Assembly: GCF_006345805.1 (NCBI RefSeq)
Contig: NC_043000.1
Span: forward strand, 142,724,001-142,788,000
DNA: 64,000 nucleotides
Direction: 5' to 3'
From: Octopus sinensis
Taxonomy: Eukaryota
The position numbers were made by a program, and so were the translations under genes. Below are positions 4,976 through 12,328 of the stretch, piece after piece; position 1 is the stretch's first letter; each line of letters starts with the position of its first letter. The notes under the pieces were generated by a model, which did no database searches, had not been told where the DNA came from, and saw nothing but the letters and a program-made list of their open reading frames with translations.

Positions 4976-5944
4976 TATCCAGACAACTCACTCATTTATC
5001 TTCCACTCCTAGGTTCGTCACCAACGTGCTTACTTACTTATGTGTCAATAATCTGGAATTTTTCTCTCCTGTTGCCATCAAGCTTCAGTTGGTAAAGAAA
5101 GCCATCAATCCCGCGATCTACCGGGGACCCAGTGTGACTGCTAGCACTATGTGTGCAAACCAAATCATTTTTAAAGTGGCCCGGTGGTCATTTTTCAAAC
5201 AAGATAACCTTCTTGATACTTTTGAAATTTTTGCTTATATCATTGTATATATTCTTGTTTAGTATTGCATAACATTGTATATTGTACTGTATAGTATTAA
5301 TATTTGGTAGTAAGCTGGCTGAATCTTTAGAGTGTTGAATTGATTGCTTTGCCGAAATCTTTCGAACTCAGCTCACATTGTCATCAAGTTTACCTATCAT
5401 CCTTTCTGGATTGATAATTAAAGTCTCAGACTTGTACTGATTTGCTTTTCTTCTTTCTCCCTTCTTTGCTTTTTGTCAGTGTCTAATTCTTTCTTTCTGC
5501 AAGAAATCAGTCATGACCAACCCTGGGAGAAGATGAGCTCCTCCATGTCCTAAGTGACCAACGCACGCAGTATAGCACAATGGTGCAATTTCAAATTCAT
5601 CAAAGAGTTAAGAGCTCATGGCATTATAAATATTTTTCTTCTTGTATATTTGAGCTTAGACAATGATCCAAGCTAACACTGGATGCTTCACTGCATTTTC
5701 TAATTTAAATGTCGCAGGAGATGCTTACGCACTTGATTTTTTTAATGATTGTATTTTTTCTTGCAGGTGGTTCTGTTAACAACTTGACCTCTACGAAGTG
5801 GAGAACGTTATTATCATTGCTGCTTAACTCATATTTTCTCCTATTAAACAAACGTAAGTGGAAAAACATTCAATAACTGGGCTCGACTTCTTTTGATAAC
5901 GTGGTTTCTGTATGTGTCAACCTAGTGGCGTGCACTAATAACCA

Positions 5945-6198
5945 TGTGATATACAATACCACAGAACGGGGTAGACACCAACCGTCTCCACTTGATGTAT
6001 TTCCATATACTCTGGAAACAAATCTAACCAATACAAAACAACTCTCAACGAACTATAAAAACTTTTCAGCAATTTCCTGCGACCCCATACACTCATGCAC
6101 GACACCTTTCGACTTCTTGCGATTTTCACTCCTCGCTCTCAGTCAAAACATTCGGCTAGTCCATTCTCACAGTGGGTCTCAGTATTCTCGCCGTGTCA
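5945..6198 (-). mobile_element. 3' LTR of a Ty3/Gypsy element
   Basis: Minus strand reads polypurine tract AAAAGGGGAGA directly followed by TG...; candidate CA end at 5945; directly downstream of the integrase relic. Confidence 0.7.
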
Positions 6199-7135
6199 TC
6201 TCCCCTTTTGAGATTTGACTTCTATAGGACGTACGAATTGTTCATTTGATTTTATTCCATATCTTTTTATCACCACCTTTTATGAGATTTTAATTTACTC
6301 TGAAGTTTTAATACTTCTTTCGCTTAGGGACTATTTCTAGTCGTTCTGCTTGTTTATGTTTTCTTTTGCTGACCCACCTAGGTTCAACCTCTTTTGGCAT
6401 TAGAACATCGAACTAATCATAACAAACTTTCATCAGTATTTCTTCTCTTTCTTCGGTATGTCTAGTCTTCAACTGGTTTAAATGTCATTTATGCTCGCCT
6501 ATTTGACCTTTTATTATGCACATCATACTGCCTATTCTTTTCGTCTCTATACCGTCCTCCTAACCTTGTCTACCATTCTTATTTATTTTGAAATGAACTT
6601 TTTATCTCCCACATTAAAACACTTTGTTGTTTTTCTTGGGTTTTTCCCTATAAGAATTTTTGCAAATAAAATTTATCAAAAATTCATTTTATTTTCCAGA
6701 CTAATATTAGCTTTGCAGGTGACTTGCCTGAACAGGTGTTCGGATTAGGTGTTACCCAGTAAACACTTAAGAACTGAGCTAGTGCTGCATCATTGCCTAA
6801 TTCCTTTCCTGATTTTTTAGTGCTCGCTAAAATATGTCAACAAACTTTTCTACTTTCCCATTTGATCGCGGATGGTACGGTGGAGTAGAAATATGATTGA
6901 TTGCATATCTCTCACAGAAATTTTTAAAAGCCTACCTCCAAAAATTGCGTTCCGTTATCTGTCCGGTAAAGTAGTGTCTGGGACACCTATTGCGTAAAAT
7001 GTTCGTGAAGGAAGCTTGTTGTTACCTTCGAGGTTGGCTGACTGCATTTACATATCTCCGGGTACTTGGTATAGCCATCTATAATGATCAGATAATACGC
7101 GCCGTTTACAGGTCCAGCAAAATCTATATGTAGCC
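6199..7135 (-). pseudogene. Ty3/Gypsy integrase relic (rve core plus C-terminus) and PPT
   Basis: Translates to RLHIDFAGPVNGAYYLIIIDGYTKYPE...DNGTQF...HISTPPYHPRSNGKVEKFVD (D,D(35)E) with stops and frameshifts. Confidence 0.9.
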
Positions 7136-8330
7136 TCAAGCAGTACCATTTAACAGTGTTAATTTCTACAATTAGATAATTATTCTTACACTTTTTTTGT
7201 TTTTGTATCGTTCTATTTTTCATTCTTTCAAAACTTTTTAACAGTCTATTTTTCCTCATTTTTTATAACAAACTAGCAGTATCGCCCGGCGTTGCTCGGG
7301 TTTGTAAGGAAAATAACTATAAAGCATTTTTAGAGAGTTATAGCCAAAAAATAGCAAAAAATGCATTAAAAATGAAAAAAAAATTATGGTAATTTTTTTT
7401 TAAATCGTTGACTCATCGTAGACATTTTTAGGAAGTTACTTCCCTTATATTAAAAAAATATGCATTAAAATGGAAATAAATTATGGTAAATTATTTTTAA
7501 AATCGTAGACTGATCGTAGACGCGCGCTAATACCCAGAAGGGCTCGATATGAATCACGACTATAAGATACCCGGTTTTGGTTAAACTGCACCGCAAAATG
7601 TGGGAGTAAGGAATCTAAATCGGAGTAGACAGACACACAACCTTTCTTTTATATATAAAGATTTTACTTCCTTACATTTTTTAAACGTTGATTAATGGTT
7701 TTAGATCTTCGAAATCCACGACTGGTTCGTCAAATTCGATTTCAACCCCCAATGGGTCTATGCTGCTTCCAAGCAGTTCTCTTAATTTTTCAAATCTCAC
7801 TTTATCTATGATAATTCCTGTAGTCTTTTCCGAGTATTTTTCTGGGAGCAGCCTTACTCTTATTACAGATTTATACTTTATAATATTTTTCTCTATTGCT
7901 ATACGTGGCCATATGTCACTTGTAAATTTTCCTTTTCACATCCGCTTGCTTCGGCTCCAGACCTGGGTTGTGCGGGTGTATAACAAAATCATAACCAAAA
8001 TCATAACCGCTGCCTCCTTCTACATCCTGTTATAAGGCTGTTTCTTCCTCTGCGCCCTCTTCCATTATTAATTCTGTTGGTGTCTCGCACCTGTATCTCT
8101 TTTGCTCCATCTCAATCTCTTTCAACCTGTTTTGGTTCTCTGGAGGAGAGCTCACCCGTTCTTTTCTCTTCCTCCTATTTACGACTGTGAAGGCTTCCTC
8201 TATCTTTCTCTGTTACTGGTACTACATCTTCGGTACTCTTTTCTTCACTTTTCTTCTCTTCGTTTTCCTTCTCAGGGCACCTTACTTTCATATGCCCTTT
8301 TTTTCTGCATAGGAAGCATGTCGGTGGCCT
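7136..8330 (-). pseudogene. 5'-truncated copy B of an ORF1/gag-like-only element
   Basis: Begins at knuckle RPPTCFLCRKKGHMKVRC (8277-8318); C-terminus LLGSSIDPLGVEIEFDEPVVDFEDLKP is homologous to copy A; same 3' end motif. Confidence 0.8.
7273..7661 (-). mobile_element. Non-autonomous Helitron
   Basis: Minus strand: A|TCTTTATATATAAAAG ... subterminal hairpin CCCGAGCAACGCCGGG ... CTAG|T; no TSD; internal ~100-bp tandem duplication; host sequence rejoins when it is removed. Confidence 0.88.
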
Positions 8331-8500
8331 TCAAACAGTACCATTTAACAGTTGAATTATACAAATTAACAAATCTTTCTTACACTGTCATTTCTCTTTT
8401 AGCATCGTTTTTTTTTCTTCTTTTTTTCCCCTTTCGGGGAAATTCTATTATTTATCTTGGGGTGGGTGGGGGCTGATTCTATTATTTAAAATTTTTTTAC

Positions 8501-9897
8501 TTATTTACTCCCTTTAAAGTTCATAAAGGGTTTCAAATCTTCAAACTCCACGACCGGTGGCAACTCGTCGAATTCGACCTCTAACGCCAACGGGTCCACA
8601 CTATTTCCGAACAGTTCCTTCAATTTCTCACATCTATTCCTGTCAATAACTAGTCCCTTGGCTTCCTCTAAATATCTCTCCGATCGCAACCCCACCCGCA
8701 TGACTGATTTAAACTTCGCAATCCTCCGCTAGACCGCCGCACCCCAGGCATGTGTGACCATACGCCACTTGTTTTTTTTCCGTCTTCAACATCCGCTTAA
8801 CTCAGCGATAGACCTGGGCTGTCCTCGCGAGTCGTTCTACATGGTTTCTCTCCTAGACCACCGCAACAAGCTTCAATGTCTAAGTCCTCCACATCGTGTA
8901 GTACTGATGCTTCTGCTTCCACTCCACCCTCCATTGTTGCCTCTACTGGTGACTCGCACCCGTTCCTTTCCTCCTCCATGCCAATCTCCTTCATCCTCTT
9001 CCAGCTCTCCGGCTGAGAGGTCACCCGCTCTTACCTCTTCCTACCGTTTACGATGGTGAATGATTCCTCCACTTTATCTTGCTCTCTTTCCGGTATTACC
9101 GCTTCGGCACTCTGCTCTTCCTCCCTCAGCTCATCTTAGTTTTCTTTCTGGTCGCACCTTCCTTTCAAGTGCCCCTTTTGACCACATAAGGAACATGTTG
9201 GTAGTCTTCCTTCCACCACCACTCACAGTCGGACGTTTTCTGAGAGAGTGATCTCCTCTGTAATTTCGTGCCAGTCTTTTAGTCTCACTTGTATGGCCAT
9301 CTCGAGGCCATACCCCCACCAATTAACATTTTTGGTTCTCGTAATCTTTAAGAATTTTACTTCATCCTCCATTCTGTGCATGATTGCTGCCACCAGCCCT
9401 GCTTCATTAATCTCGGGGGGTACTCAACCAATTCTTACTCTGGCGACGCTTTTGCCACAGTAAGTCGGCAGAAGTACCCATTCACCTGTTCTTATCGGCT
9501 CAGTAGCGTGGTCTATCGCGTCTTCTTCTTTGCTAAACCTTACTTCCACTGTGCCGTATTTCTTTTCACGCGTATAAAATGTGGTAAGCTTCTTTATTTC
9601 CTTCAAGCACTACTCTATTGCCTCTACTGGGGCAACCTCTATCTTTTTAGAGGACGTTGATAACGTTCTGTACACCATTGTCCTCTTCGCCACATTGTTC
9701 GTCACTTCTTGCGGTGGAGTCAGCCTCAAACTGGCTCCTTCCCTTTTTATTAATTTACTTCCTTCCTTTCACTTTCTGGGCTTTACGTTAATTTCACTTA
9801 CTTACAAGGCGTCGGCAAGTATTCCTTTACATGTCACTGATGCGCAACTTCCAGTTGGTTAATTTTCCATATCTCCTCTTTCCTCTACTTCACCCAT
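8501..9897 (-). pseudogene. Copy A: about 465-codon L1/Tx1-ORF1-like (RRM-like + CCHC zinc knuckle) pseudogene
   Basis: One frame from ATG 9897 with scattered stops: KYGTVEVRFSKEEDA...PTYCGKSVARVRIG*VPPEI...VVVEGRLPTCSLCGQKGHLKGRC (knuckle 9154-9195), acidic linker, one frameshift, ends DFELPPVVEFEDLKPFMNFKGSK-like C-terminus. Confidence 0.8.
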
Positions 9898-10148
9898 AAC
9901 TGGGTAAGAAAACAAATACAATAACAGGCGAAAACAGAAATAATAGTTTAAAATTTAATAAATTTAACAAATCCTAGGTTCACCCACACGAAAAGACCTA
10001 TAACAAACTAACGGCTTACTCCGAAATCACAAGTGATTTCACAAGAAGATGCGAATTTTAATCTCACACTATCAGTCAAATACTGTGCTACTTATAAGAG
10101 TTCAGCTAGTCCATTCTCACAGAGGGTGTCAGGATTCTCGCCATAACA
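9898..10148 (-). mobile_element. LTR-like leader upstream of copy A
   Basis: Starts TGTTATGGCGAGAATCCTGACACCCTCTGTGAGAATGGACTAGCTGAA, clearly homologous to the first ~100 nt of the LTR at 6198 (TGACACGGCGAGAATACTGAGACCCACTGTGAGAATGGACTAGCCGAA). Confidence 0.7.
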
Positions 10149-11951: not shown

Positions 11952-12328
11952 ATTTAGGTCATTCTTTGATCTGGTTGATACTGAGTATTTGTTGCCTCAT
12001 GAAAGGTAAACAGATGAAGCGCTGTACTGGTCACCTAGTGATTCTCTCTATACTCCTAATTATTTTTGTGATGATCGGTTCTAACCATGTCAAAATTATT
12101 TTACCCCCTCTATAGATGACTGCATCAGGTATTAGCCGATGAATCTAAATCGTACATATTGATGCAGTTACAAATTTACAAATAATTTTGACATGGTTAG
12201 AACCGAACATCACAAAATAATTAGGAGTATAGAGAGAATCACTAGGTGACCAGTACAGCGCTTCATCTGTTTACTTTTCATGAGGCAACAAATACTCAGT
12301 ATCAACCAGATCAAAGAATGACCTAAAT
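11952..12328. repeat. Near-perfect 150-bp inverted repeat (11952-12101 / 12180-12328) with a 78-bp spacer
   Basis: Arms are reverse complements with only a few differences. Confidence 0.95.

Follow-up and report, generated by a model that had tools for sequence, protein, structure and literature searches.

Among non-autonomous LINEs, HAL1, HeT-A and Ag-Sponge have been described as ORF1-only elements in the available text of two sources (PMC5786205, PMC5753468), and in that of a third HeT-A forms head-to-tail arrays and is targeted by its Gag (PMC5537684). ORF1 proteins are divided into types, Type I combining RRM and CCHC, as given in the accessible part of PMC5203782. Regarding target choice, the sections available of PMC4494074 place in the target-specific Tx1 clade Tx1L/Tx1D, Tx1-Mar, Tx1-8_Crp and Tx1-4_AMi in LTR retrotransposons, and Kibi/Koshi, and cite R2 as being co-transcribed from its target. 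Meanwhile, TRE5-A of Dictyostelium is oriented oppositely to the Pol III tRNA genes that it targets, entering 44-54 bp upstream of them, and its ORF1 binds TBP, Brf1 and Bdp1, according to the portion at hand of PMC5911963.

The octopus element presented here shares with HAL1, HeT-A and Ag-Sponge the LINE 5' and 3' parts, a retained ORF1, the absence of ORF2 and the dependence on a partner, and with HeT-A the head-to-tail arrays. However, its ORF1 is of Type I and belongs to an L1/Tx1-type lineage, and its targets are internal and promoter-positioned instead of dispersed or telomeric. An L1/Tx1-type APE-RT partner, transposon targets, tandem insertion and a (TC)n-targeting sister lineage bring it close to the Tx1 clade, whose members, as far as the available text goes, are each said to favour a particular target family or sequence, whereas the octopus family has at least 16 unrelated, TATA-distanced targets. 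The crocodilian LTR sites of Tx1-8_Crp and Tx1-4_AMi may bear on this difference. By analogy, the family resembles TRE5-A as an APE-RT-type non-LTR element that would be position-specific relative to a transcription complex, but its copies are in sense orientation and follow closely on Pol II-type TATA boxes.

The window is a stretch of 64,000 nucleotides from Octopus sinensis (NC_043000.1, positions 142,724,001 to 142,788,000), and all features below are read on its minus strand unless stated. At 10148, where the LTR-like start reported in the preliminary description was found again, a Gypsy-type LTR of family A begins, of which the front, part of U3, is present (10051..10148; 74-88% identity to LTR-A starts); it is the target of the LINE and lies outside it. 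This front bears the TATA-like box TATAAG of the LTR (10091..10096), conserved among LTR-A copies, and the 5' copy of a target-site duplication (10051..10065) starting 31 nt behind the box; in L147, L150, L047 and L003 these 15-16 nt are found on both sides of the element, while the 3' partner is deleted in the window. Then follows the first ORF1-only LINE copy (8331..10050; 71-81% full-length identity to other genomic copies), formed by a 5' UTR, a dead ORF1 and a 3' UTR reaching the hairpin. The decayed ORF1 (8501..9897, ~465 codons) is ordered as RRM, RRM, CCHC knuckle (9195-9154), charged linker and C-terminal domain. As proposed earlier, the region 9897-8501 carries VVVEGR.P and the knuckle, but the frame is dead, being interrupted by 10 internal stops and shifted at least once, near 8770, and has two RRM-like domains rather than one.

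The 5' arm of the hairpin (8331..8345), conserved in 3' UTRs, is the deletion breakpoint of copy 1, from which the last ~150 nt of the element are absent. The second copy (7135..8330) belongs to a different subfamily (83% identity with L020 and 70% with copy 1), starts at the knuckle and stops at this same arm, and is dead like the first; it was correctly recognized, except that a ~390-bp, very high-copy insertion without assigned strand (7273..7661; 90% to L055, 88% to L034) splits it in the 3' UTR. This insertion has a read depth of ~10^6, with loose ends both at 7272 and at 7661-7665, and may be a Helitron/Helentron-like end. Next come a broken Gypsy-type integrase remnant from the host LTR element (6308..7134), with LHIDFAGP and PYHPRSNG motifs and 78-86% identity to internal parts of LTR-A elements that extend upstream beyond 7136; a polypurine tract (6199..6209) common to LTR-A 3' LTRs; and a family A 3' LTR of ~307 nt (5892..6198), its ends read by comparison with LTR-A copies. 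All three had been seen before, with the LTR start at 6198, but the LTR ends at ~5892 and not at 5945, and they belong to the host LTR element, adjoined through deletions, instead of being parts of the mobile element. A 14-nt piece, and with it the TATA-like box, is missing from the 3' LTR, which had at least 42 matches among 40 scored candidates in the genome search. The LTR starts are indeed alike, the likeness measuring 90% over 42 nt and 63 of 74 aligned nt with one gap, against the about 100 nt first proposed. The two LTRs may stem from one element, but their flanks match at 3 of 5 nt and their identity is like that of random copies. Uninterrupted LTR-A copies have a polypurine tract before or a PBS-like motif after. 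An assembly artefact is ruled out for two of the three joints by contigs from independent runs, which bridge 10050 (X2, X4) and 7135 (X2, X4, X5). Among the sets listed for the locus there was no RNA set, and in X12 coverage is limited to the integrase and the high-copy insert, neither result bearing on expression.

The element itself is a ~1.9 kb LINE with its own 5' end, at 10050 in the window, and it starts at window ~10065-10021 in 17 of the 29 other loci, these being the genome matches to the window element other than the window itself. The leader that had been assigned to the element recurs in one of the 29 (L020), while the upstream flanks of other copies are fronts of different LTR families, with the back of the same LTR after the element. 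Copies elsewhere have their own hairpin and AATAAAGAA tail, with 13-19-bp target duplications, and the hairpin folds in five of six natural tails (-11 to -14 kcal/mol). The proposed end at 8331 does not hold, as 18 of 20 distinct other 3' ends continue through the hairpin and the ~150-nt tail; the same 18 pass from the ORF stop to the tail, as expected from the non-autonomous, ORF2-lacking family that had been suggested. Behind an ORF of this type, no APE-RT was found in 20 loci of 10 kb except at L127, where a truncated RT piece is joined inside the ORF, and at L135 and L140, where separate Tx1 copies stand behind a tail. No intact copy was seen among the examined loci. The element is an abundant HAL1-like, ORF1-only non-autonomous LINE of the octopus whose sole product is an RNA-binding protein, as read from its sequence, genome-search counts referring to sampled loci with 40-150 scored candidates per search.

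Regarding the protein, ORF1 is 34-36% identical (E 1e-36 to 3e-49) to the ORF1 of ORF1+APE+RT LINEs in the genome, and the model of a natural relative's ORF1 (pLDDT 87) predicts two RRM/ferredoxin-like domains at residues 55-225. Gypsy Gag was rejected on this modelled region preceding the knuckle, which would hold no capsid (CA) fold, and the homology and the two predicted RRM folds agree with the LINE-type (L1/Tx1) ORF1 suggested at the outset. A first fold from a 15-sequence alignment was uninformative (pLDDT 50); Pfam returned weak zf-CCHC matches and nothing else; a profile search of solved-structure sequences gave zinc knuckles and low-complexity stretches only; and an L1 ORF1p chain was absent among the structure matches listed for the ORF1 model. 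Among loci selected for long open frames, pS exceeded pN in 105 of 105 pairs, with a median dN/dS of 0.195 (78 of 105 estimable). From these substitution patterns, ORF1 is under purifying selection and was functional during amplification.

ORF1-only copies occupy at least 16 sequence-unrelated targets, mostly LTRs, and at 21 of 26 resolved sites, in 14 of 16 target families (null 7.1%), the target duplication is preceded at 27-35 nt by a TATA-like hexamer, scored with a hexamer pattern composed after the sites had been inspected; five sites lack the spacing. A fixed distance to a promoter element across unrelated targets, as expected of a TRE5-A-like system, is thus observed. The 26 sites were hand-picked from 80 distinct tails for having the 5' duplication within the available DNA; one is a truncated Tx1 end and three come from LTR-seeded retrieval, without which the count is 19 of 23. 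A matrix test gave 18 of 26, compared to a null mean of 3.0 and a maximum of 8 in 300; the hexamer test is cleaner, L002 and L010 having been misplaced by the offset correction applied to the matrix. As a control, a SINE with a similar tail and duplications of similar length (10-20 nt) has the spacing at 2 of 23 sites; this SINE may be mobilised by a different Tx1 lineage. The duplicated target sequences have no common motif, and 5'-truncated copies, each with its own duplication, lie at the same spot (L047, L150, L202, L206, L079). The spacing, together with an Inr-like TCAGT at the sites of LTR families B and N, suggests insertion at the transcription start. An Rfam search at five target loci gave no match. 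The LTR association is systematic and position-specific across copies, not a chance insertion at one locus, and site choice appears to be positional and independent of target sequence, most likely through tethering. ORF1-only LINEs and LTR-preferring Tx1 elements are already known; the TATA-relative rule is apparently new, as neither it nor this octopus family was found described in the literature searched, nor in the available parts of PMC13282606, PMC10886601 and PMC11288735.

The autonomous relatives are L1/Tx1-type LINEs, with ORF1-APE-RT at 19 of 20 loci seeded by a Tx1-type ORF1. The best solved match of a related RT is L1 ORF2p (E 5e-41), and relatives with APE+RT+zf-RVT occur in fish and lancelet; this comparison places the partner RT in the L1 superfamily. 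At L005/L143 and L135, the 3' end of a Tx1 copy and an ORF1-only array have their duplication in common, at L214 and L233 Tx1 terminates in LTR-B, and the last 60 nt of the ORF1-only tail are identical at 40-49 positions to the Tx1 tails of L231, L239 and L233. Three intact-type LINEs (L278, L280, L281) lie 29-31 nt behind a TATA-like box. Intron/exon-like sequence follows L278. Related autonomous LINEs also obey other rules, with 6 of 20 in (TC)n and six in one repeat having only TATTTTT at -29.

Two alternatives concern how the site is chosen. In a classical sequence-specific Tx1 targeting, each subfamily would recognise its own LTR, aided by target-derived bases at the RNA end, and the TATA spacing would arise since only promoter-adjacent targets sustain masters. 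The available text of PMC4494074 reports Tx1 families that each target a single transposon, some clades' 5' ends resemble, by eye, the R-region starts of the target LTR, and target labels are partly clustered on the element tree (26 changes vs 34.5 shuffled; K, F), so that a lineage preference exists. However, labels are scattered for B (8 changes in 11 rows) and C (4 in 4), sisters 84-89% identical lie in unrelated LTRs (L001/L002, L187/L137, L004/L007), distant lineages share one LTR-B site, and a common motif is lacking, making this reading unlikely. Likewise L002, which at 88.6% is closest to the window copy, lies in another LTR family. LTR-B breaks at one spot (reference 80-82) in 6 of 30 loci, where the query counts as one and a further eight represent a single duplicated locus, and LTR-C carries the element at one spot in 5 of 30, so about 17-20% of the sampled loci of both families carry an insertion; hitchhiking inside one LTR family was ruled out by independent truncations and target switching. 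A stronger competitor, which we regard as a serious but still tentative possibility, keeps the positional rule and lets ORF2 pick the site, either through an endonuclease reading bent or opened promoter DNA or through ORF2 itself being bound to the initiation complex, with ORF1 retained solely as an RNA chaperone that Pol II-made RNAs require. LINE target choice is set mainly by the endonuclease, as stated in the accessible text of PMC4494074, some autonomous copies have the same spacing, and the (TC)n-targeting lineage has homologous ORF1s as well; the SINE control, whose mobiliser may differ, speaks against it.

Two further alternatives concern the arrangement in the window. A single chimeric unit, LTR-led and ORF1-only, lying between Gypsy LTRs and moved by LTR machinery, would account for the promoter-like leader at every resolved copy and for a window unit that begins and ends in LTR-A. 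It is nevertheless very hard to sustain, because the leaders trace back to at least 16 targets that are not related to one another, the ORF1 unit is bordered by its 13-19-nt duplications within the LTR, neither U5 nor PBS follows the window 5' LTR, and the window junctions recur at none of the 29 other loci. For the varied leaders and LTR-internal duplications, any LTR retroelement (TRIM, TR-GAG or chimera) was rejected as the mobile unit. Alternatively, the junctions could derive from spliced read-through RNA, with a donor in the hairpin loop, copied back into DNA, as the hairpin is broken at one and the same position in the two copies, AG|G is read at either joint, and CCAG precedes the joint on the integrase side in L035. 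This is improbable, since U3 is kept and a primer-binding site is absent, the 2-4-nt microhomology suits deletion equally, and L014, L002 and L010 likewise break or lose bases at the hairpin.

The reading that we favour, and consider probable, is that of decayed ORF1-only L1/Tx1-type LINE insertions ~30 nt behind TATA-like boxes, likely at the transcription start, read from the captured promoter. At the window locus, two such copies would once have lain inside the 5' LTR of a Gypsy element, and deletions from each hairpin would have taken away the tails, the remaining LTR and the Gypsy gag-RT region, joining the LINE copies to the integrase and giving a false LTR-LINE chimera. The element would be transcribed from the captured promoter, its RNA copied in trans by a Tx1-type ORF2 and landed at a predicted Pol II start site, each step being likely, so the borrowed RT and the use of the LTR promoter were probably rightly anticipated. 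Like R2, it probably needs no promoter of its own because its target supplies it; R2 differs in having one conserved sequence target and another endonuclease type. We infer that the initiation complex on the TATA box could serve as a tether for ORF1-coated RNA, and the retention of ORF1 would then be explained. More speculatively, and with real reservations, the L1/Tx1-type LINEs of the octopus, together with their ORF1-only derivatives in the thousands, may dock ORF1 on the TATA-bound Pol II complex and insert at the start, hijacking and probably silencing promoters that belong to LTR retrotransposons, to other transposons and to some host genes.

A base-precise LINE insertion whose distance from Pol II-type TATA boxes is fixed, whatever the target sequence, would be a targeting rule not found described for animal LINEs, and it gives a testable answer to why ORF1-only LINEs retain ORF1. 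For annotators, octopus consensus repeats of the 'LTR+ORF1' kind call for caution, as they are nested insertions. If the docking proposal is true, the family would be a Pol II counterpart of TRE5-A, an ORF1-only element bearing its own targeting factor. The insertion rule itself implies a transposon-on-transposon parasite disabling LTR promoters at scale, whose copies could also end up at host gene starts, as may be seen at L278.

On the minus strand of the window (G000:C4:142724001-142788000), the parts follow one another in the order given by the preliminary description, which had joined them into one chimeric, LTR-led ORF1-only element; that unit is not real, the leader, the ORF1 element and the LTR being separate parts. 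The ORF-like region lies at 9897-8501, but its reading frame is broken by a frameshift and 10 internal stop codons, while the 3' LTR starts at 6198 but ends at ~5892 instead of 5945, as most of the 42 matches of an LTR search end at query 362-374. The joints at 10050 and 7135 are spanned by independent sequencing runs among the pieces listed. Copy 2 (7135-8330) harbours a ~390-bp element of very high copy number with internal 98-nt repeats (7273-7661). Elsewhere, a 115-nt inverted repeat (11952-12066 / 12214-12328; arms 99% complementary, 147 nt apart) looks like a young MITE-like element or foldback.

The ORF1 protein, modelled from a 106-sequence alignment (pLDDT 87), has tandem-RRM proteins as best Foldseek matches (E 4e-5), and each half resembles RRM or ferredoxin-like domains in VIA-align (Z 7-8.5), with the knuckle C-terminal of both. 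RRM-like halves followed by a knuckle match the definition of Type I LINE ORF1 in PMC5203782, in agreement with the earlier assignment to LINEs and not to Gypsy Gag; a capsid identity was rejected given the RRM/ferredoxin-like halves. With its stops read as X, the window copy shares 34-36% identity with the ORF1 of elements carrying ORF1, APE and RT (ORF2 is 1131 aa long in two of them), and the best solved match of a related RT is L1 ORF2p. Among 15 natural stop-free ORF1 segments, pS exceeds pN in 105/105 pairs, with a median dN/dS of 0.195 over the 78 estimable pairs.

Searching the 2.72-Gb genome with 8331-10148 (40 of 567 candidates scored) gave at least 66 matches; among those listed, 17 of 29 non-self loci start at window ~10065-10021, and only L020 shares the leader that had been taken as part of the element. 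Position 8331 is not its end either, as 18 of 20 distinct 3' ends continue beyond it into a hairpin, a T-rich stretch and then AATAAAGAA, the predicted hairpin folding in 5 of 6 tails tested. At protein level, scoring the best 150 of 8824 candidates gave at least 151 matches, the named homologs belonging to Octopus bimaculoides, O. sinensis, O. vulgaris and Argonauta hians, which makes the host an octopus. The absence of ORF2 was borne out, as in none of 20 loci of 7-10 kb picked for long frames does APE-RT come immediately downstream of an ORF of the ORF1-only type. Many of these loci are head-to-tail arrays with a 1.7-1.8 kb period; a truncated RT piece is fused into the ORF of L127, and the Tx1 copies at L135 and L140 are separate units that follow an ORF1-only tail. 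The ORF1-only element is a family of its own, distinct from the LTR leader.

The leader (10148-10051) aligns with the first part of LTR family A; in this family a GTGGCGACGAG-type primer site comes after 5' copies, and the same PPT comes before 3' copies. At L047, L150, L003 and L147, the final ~15 nt of the LTR-A front recur after the tail, and beyond them comes either the remainder of LTR-A or the following array member; on these junctions, the leader is an insertion target. Further copies lie in different LTRs, and L123, L084 and L129 read on into an LTR end, then a primer site and frames resembling gag. Family B, a ~150-nt LTR with PPT and PBS in paired copies 0.4-1.1 kb apart, breaks at reference 80-82 into the element 5' end in 6 of 30 loci (one being the query; among the uninterrupted loci, eight are duplicates of a single locus). 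Family C carries the element at one identical spot in 5 of 30 loci, two more being interrupted there by T-rich sequence, and family A in 1 of 30, in a search biased toward uninterrupted LTRs. The small paired LTR-B elements (L152-L180) are TRIM-like, and eight near-identical ones on C22 and C11082 form a segmental repeat. LINE or ORF1-only ends also lie in or adjoin Mariner-like transposase sequence (L212, L227, L234, L125, L280, L281), a related target repeat being common to L125, L275, L280 and L281. At L187:1600-1650, L137, L005 and L026, 5' ends resemble the R-start of an LTR family other than the host LTR, as if target bases had been carried over from the donor's transcript.

The ORF1-only LINE inserts positionally behind TATA-like boxes. 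From 80 distinct tails, 26 sites had the first duplication copy in available sequence and no other tail before it, representing 16 sequence-unrelated targets, mostly LTR-like and two without class. One target is presumably Helentron-like. With a regex written after the sites had been seen, a TATA-like hexamer starts 27-35 nt upstream of the duplication in 21/26 sites and 14/16 families, against 7.1% at random positions in the same loci; 19/23 remain without three LTR-seeded sites, and a matrix test finds 18/26 against a null mean of 3.0. The window copy has a spacing of 31 nt (10096 to 10065). As a control, an abundant SINE with a similar tail (42 copies, 23 with a callable duplication of 10-20 nt) shows the spacing in 2/23, one within a TA repeat. 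On a 48-row tree, target labels are scattered (B, 8 changes in 11 rows, one duplicated; C, 4 in 4), though less so than after shuffling (26 vs 34.5 changes); the closest relative of the window copy, L002 (88.6%), lies in a different LTR.

Tx1-type RT elements, the presumed partners, have arrays and duplications in common with this family (L005/L143, L135), end in LTR-B at L214 and L233, and have tails identical to the ORF1-only tail at 40-49 of 60 positions. ORF1-APE-RT occurs in 19 of 20 loci seeded with autonomous ORF1; of the 20, three have a TATA-like box 29-31 nt upstream, six occupy one repeat in which TATTTTT lies at -29, and six are inserted in (TC)n, the others being tandem or without clear site. 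Because of this split, the TATA spacing is valid for some LINE lineages, not all. The repeat with TATTTTT 29 nt upstream is multi-copy and hosts young full-length LINEs (L271-L274, L276, L277), with an identical 18-bp duplication at the four loci where called, and Rfam gave no match on L273. Sister L1/Tx1-type lineages in (TC)n and (TATC)n microsatellites (L279, L282-L285, L287, L138) resemble Kibi in their targeting. At L278 (1290-1310, 6799-7200; G000:C18:17290400-17300300, minus), TATAAG stands 29 nt ahead of an autonomous LINE that is nearly intact; two CACGTG boxes lie upstream, and the downstream sequence resembles an intron end, a short exon and a GTAAGT donor, so this could be where a host gene begins. 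Close by is a copy of the ORF1 family in opposite orientation. At L141:9300-9901 / L142:1-60, the tail of a full-length autonomous LINE is joined, with no intervening duplication, to the final ~150 nt of an ORF1-only tail, which suggests a template switch during reverse transcription.

By TPRT geometry, the first nick would fall on the template strand at the duplication start, which is where Pol II would be expected to start; families B and N bear an Inr-like TCAGT. The captured promoter would then drive transcription of the inserted copy, making a promoter of its own unnecessary, and insertion would regenerate the target site, giving arrays. The site could be set by ORF1 tethering the element RNA to the initiation complex, a tentative reading with somewhat less than an even chance, drawn from the binding of TFIIIB by TRE5-A ORF1 (PMC5911963), the targeting performed by HeT-A Gag (PMC5537684) and the SINE contrast; ORF2-based sensing could set it instead, with an only slightly lower chance. 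The arrangement in the window probably arose by insertion of two ORF1-only copies into the 5' LTR of a putative single Gypsy element, followed by two deletions starting in hairpin loops, with microhomology of 2-4 nt.

ORF1-only LINEs are a known kind (PMC5786205, PMC5753468), as are, in crocodilians, Tx1 families preferring LTR retrotransposons (PMC4494074). In the literature outside Repbase, Bao and Jurka 2010 and the crocodilian supplements, no report was found of this octopus family or of a TATA-relative, sequence-independent LINE target. The family is therefore a variant within a known LINE class, its new aspect, within that literature, being the targeting rule, which was reached by following up the supposed chimera and is both unusual and testable.
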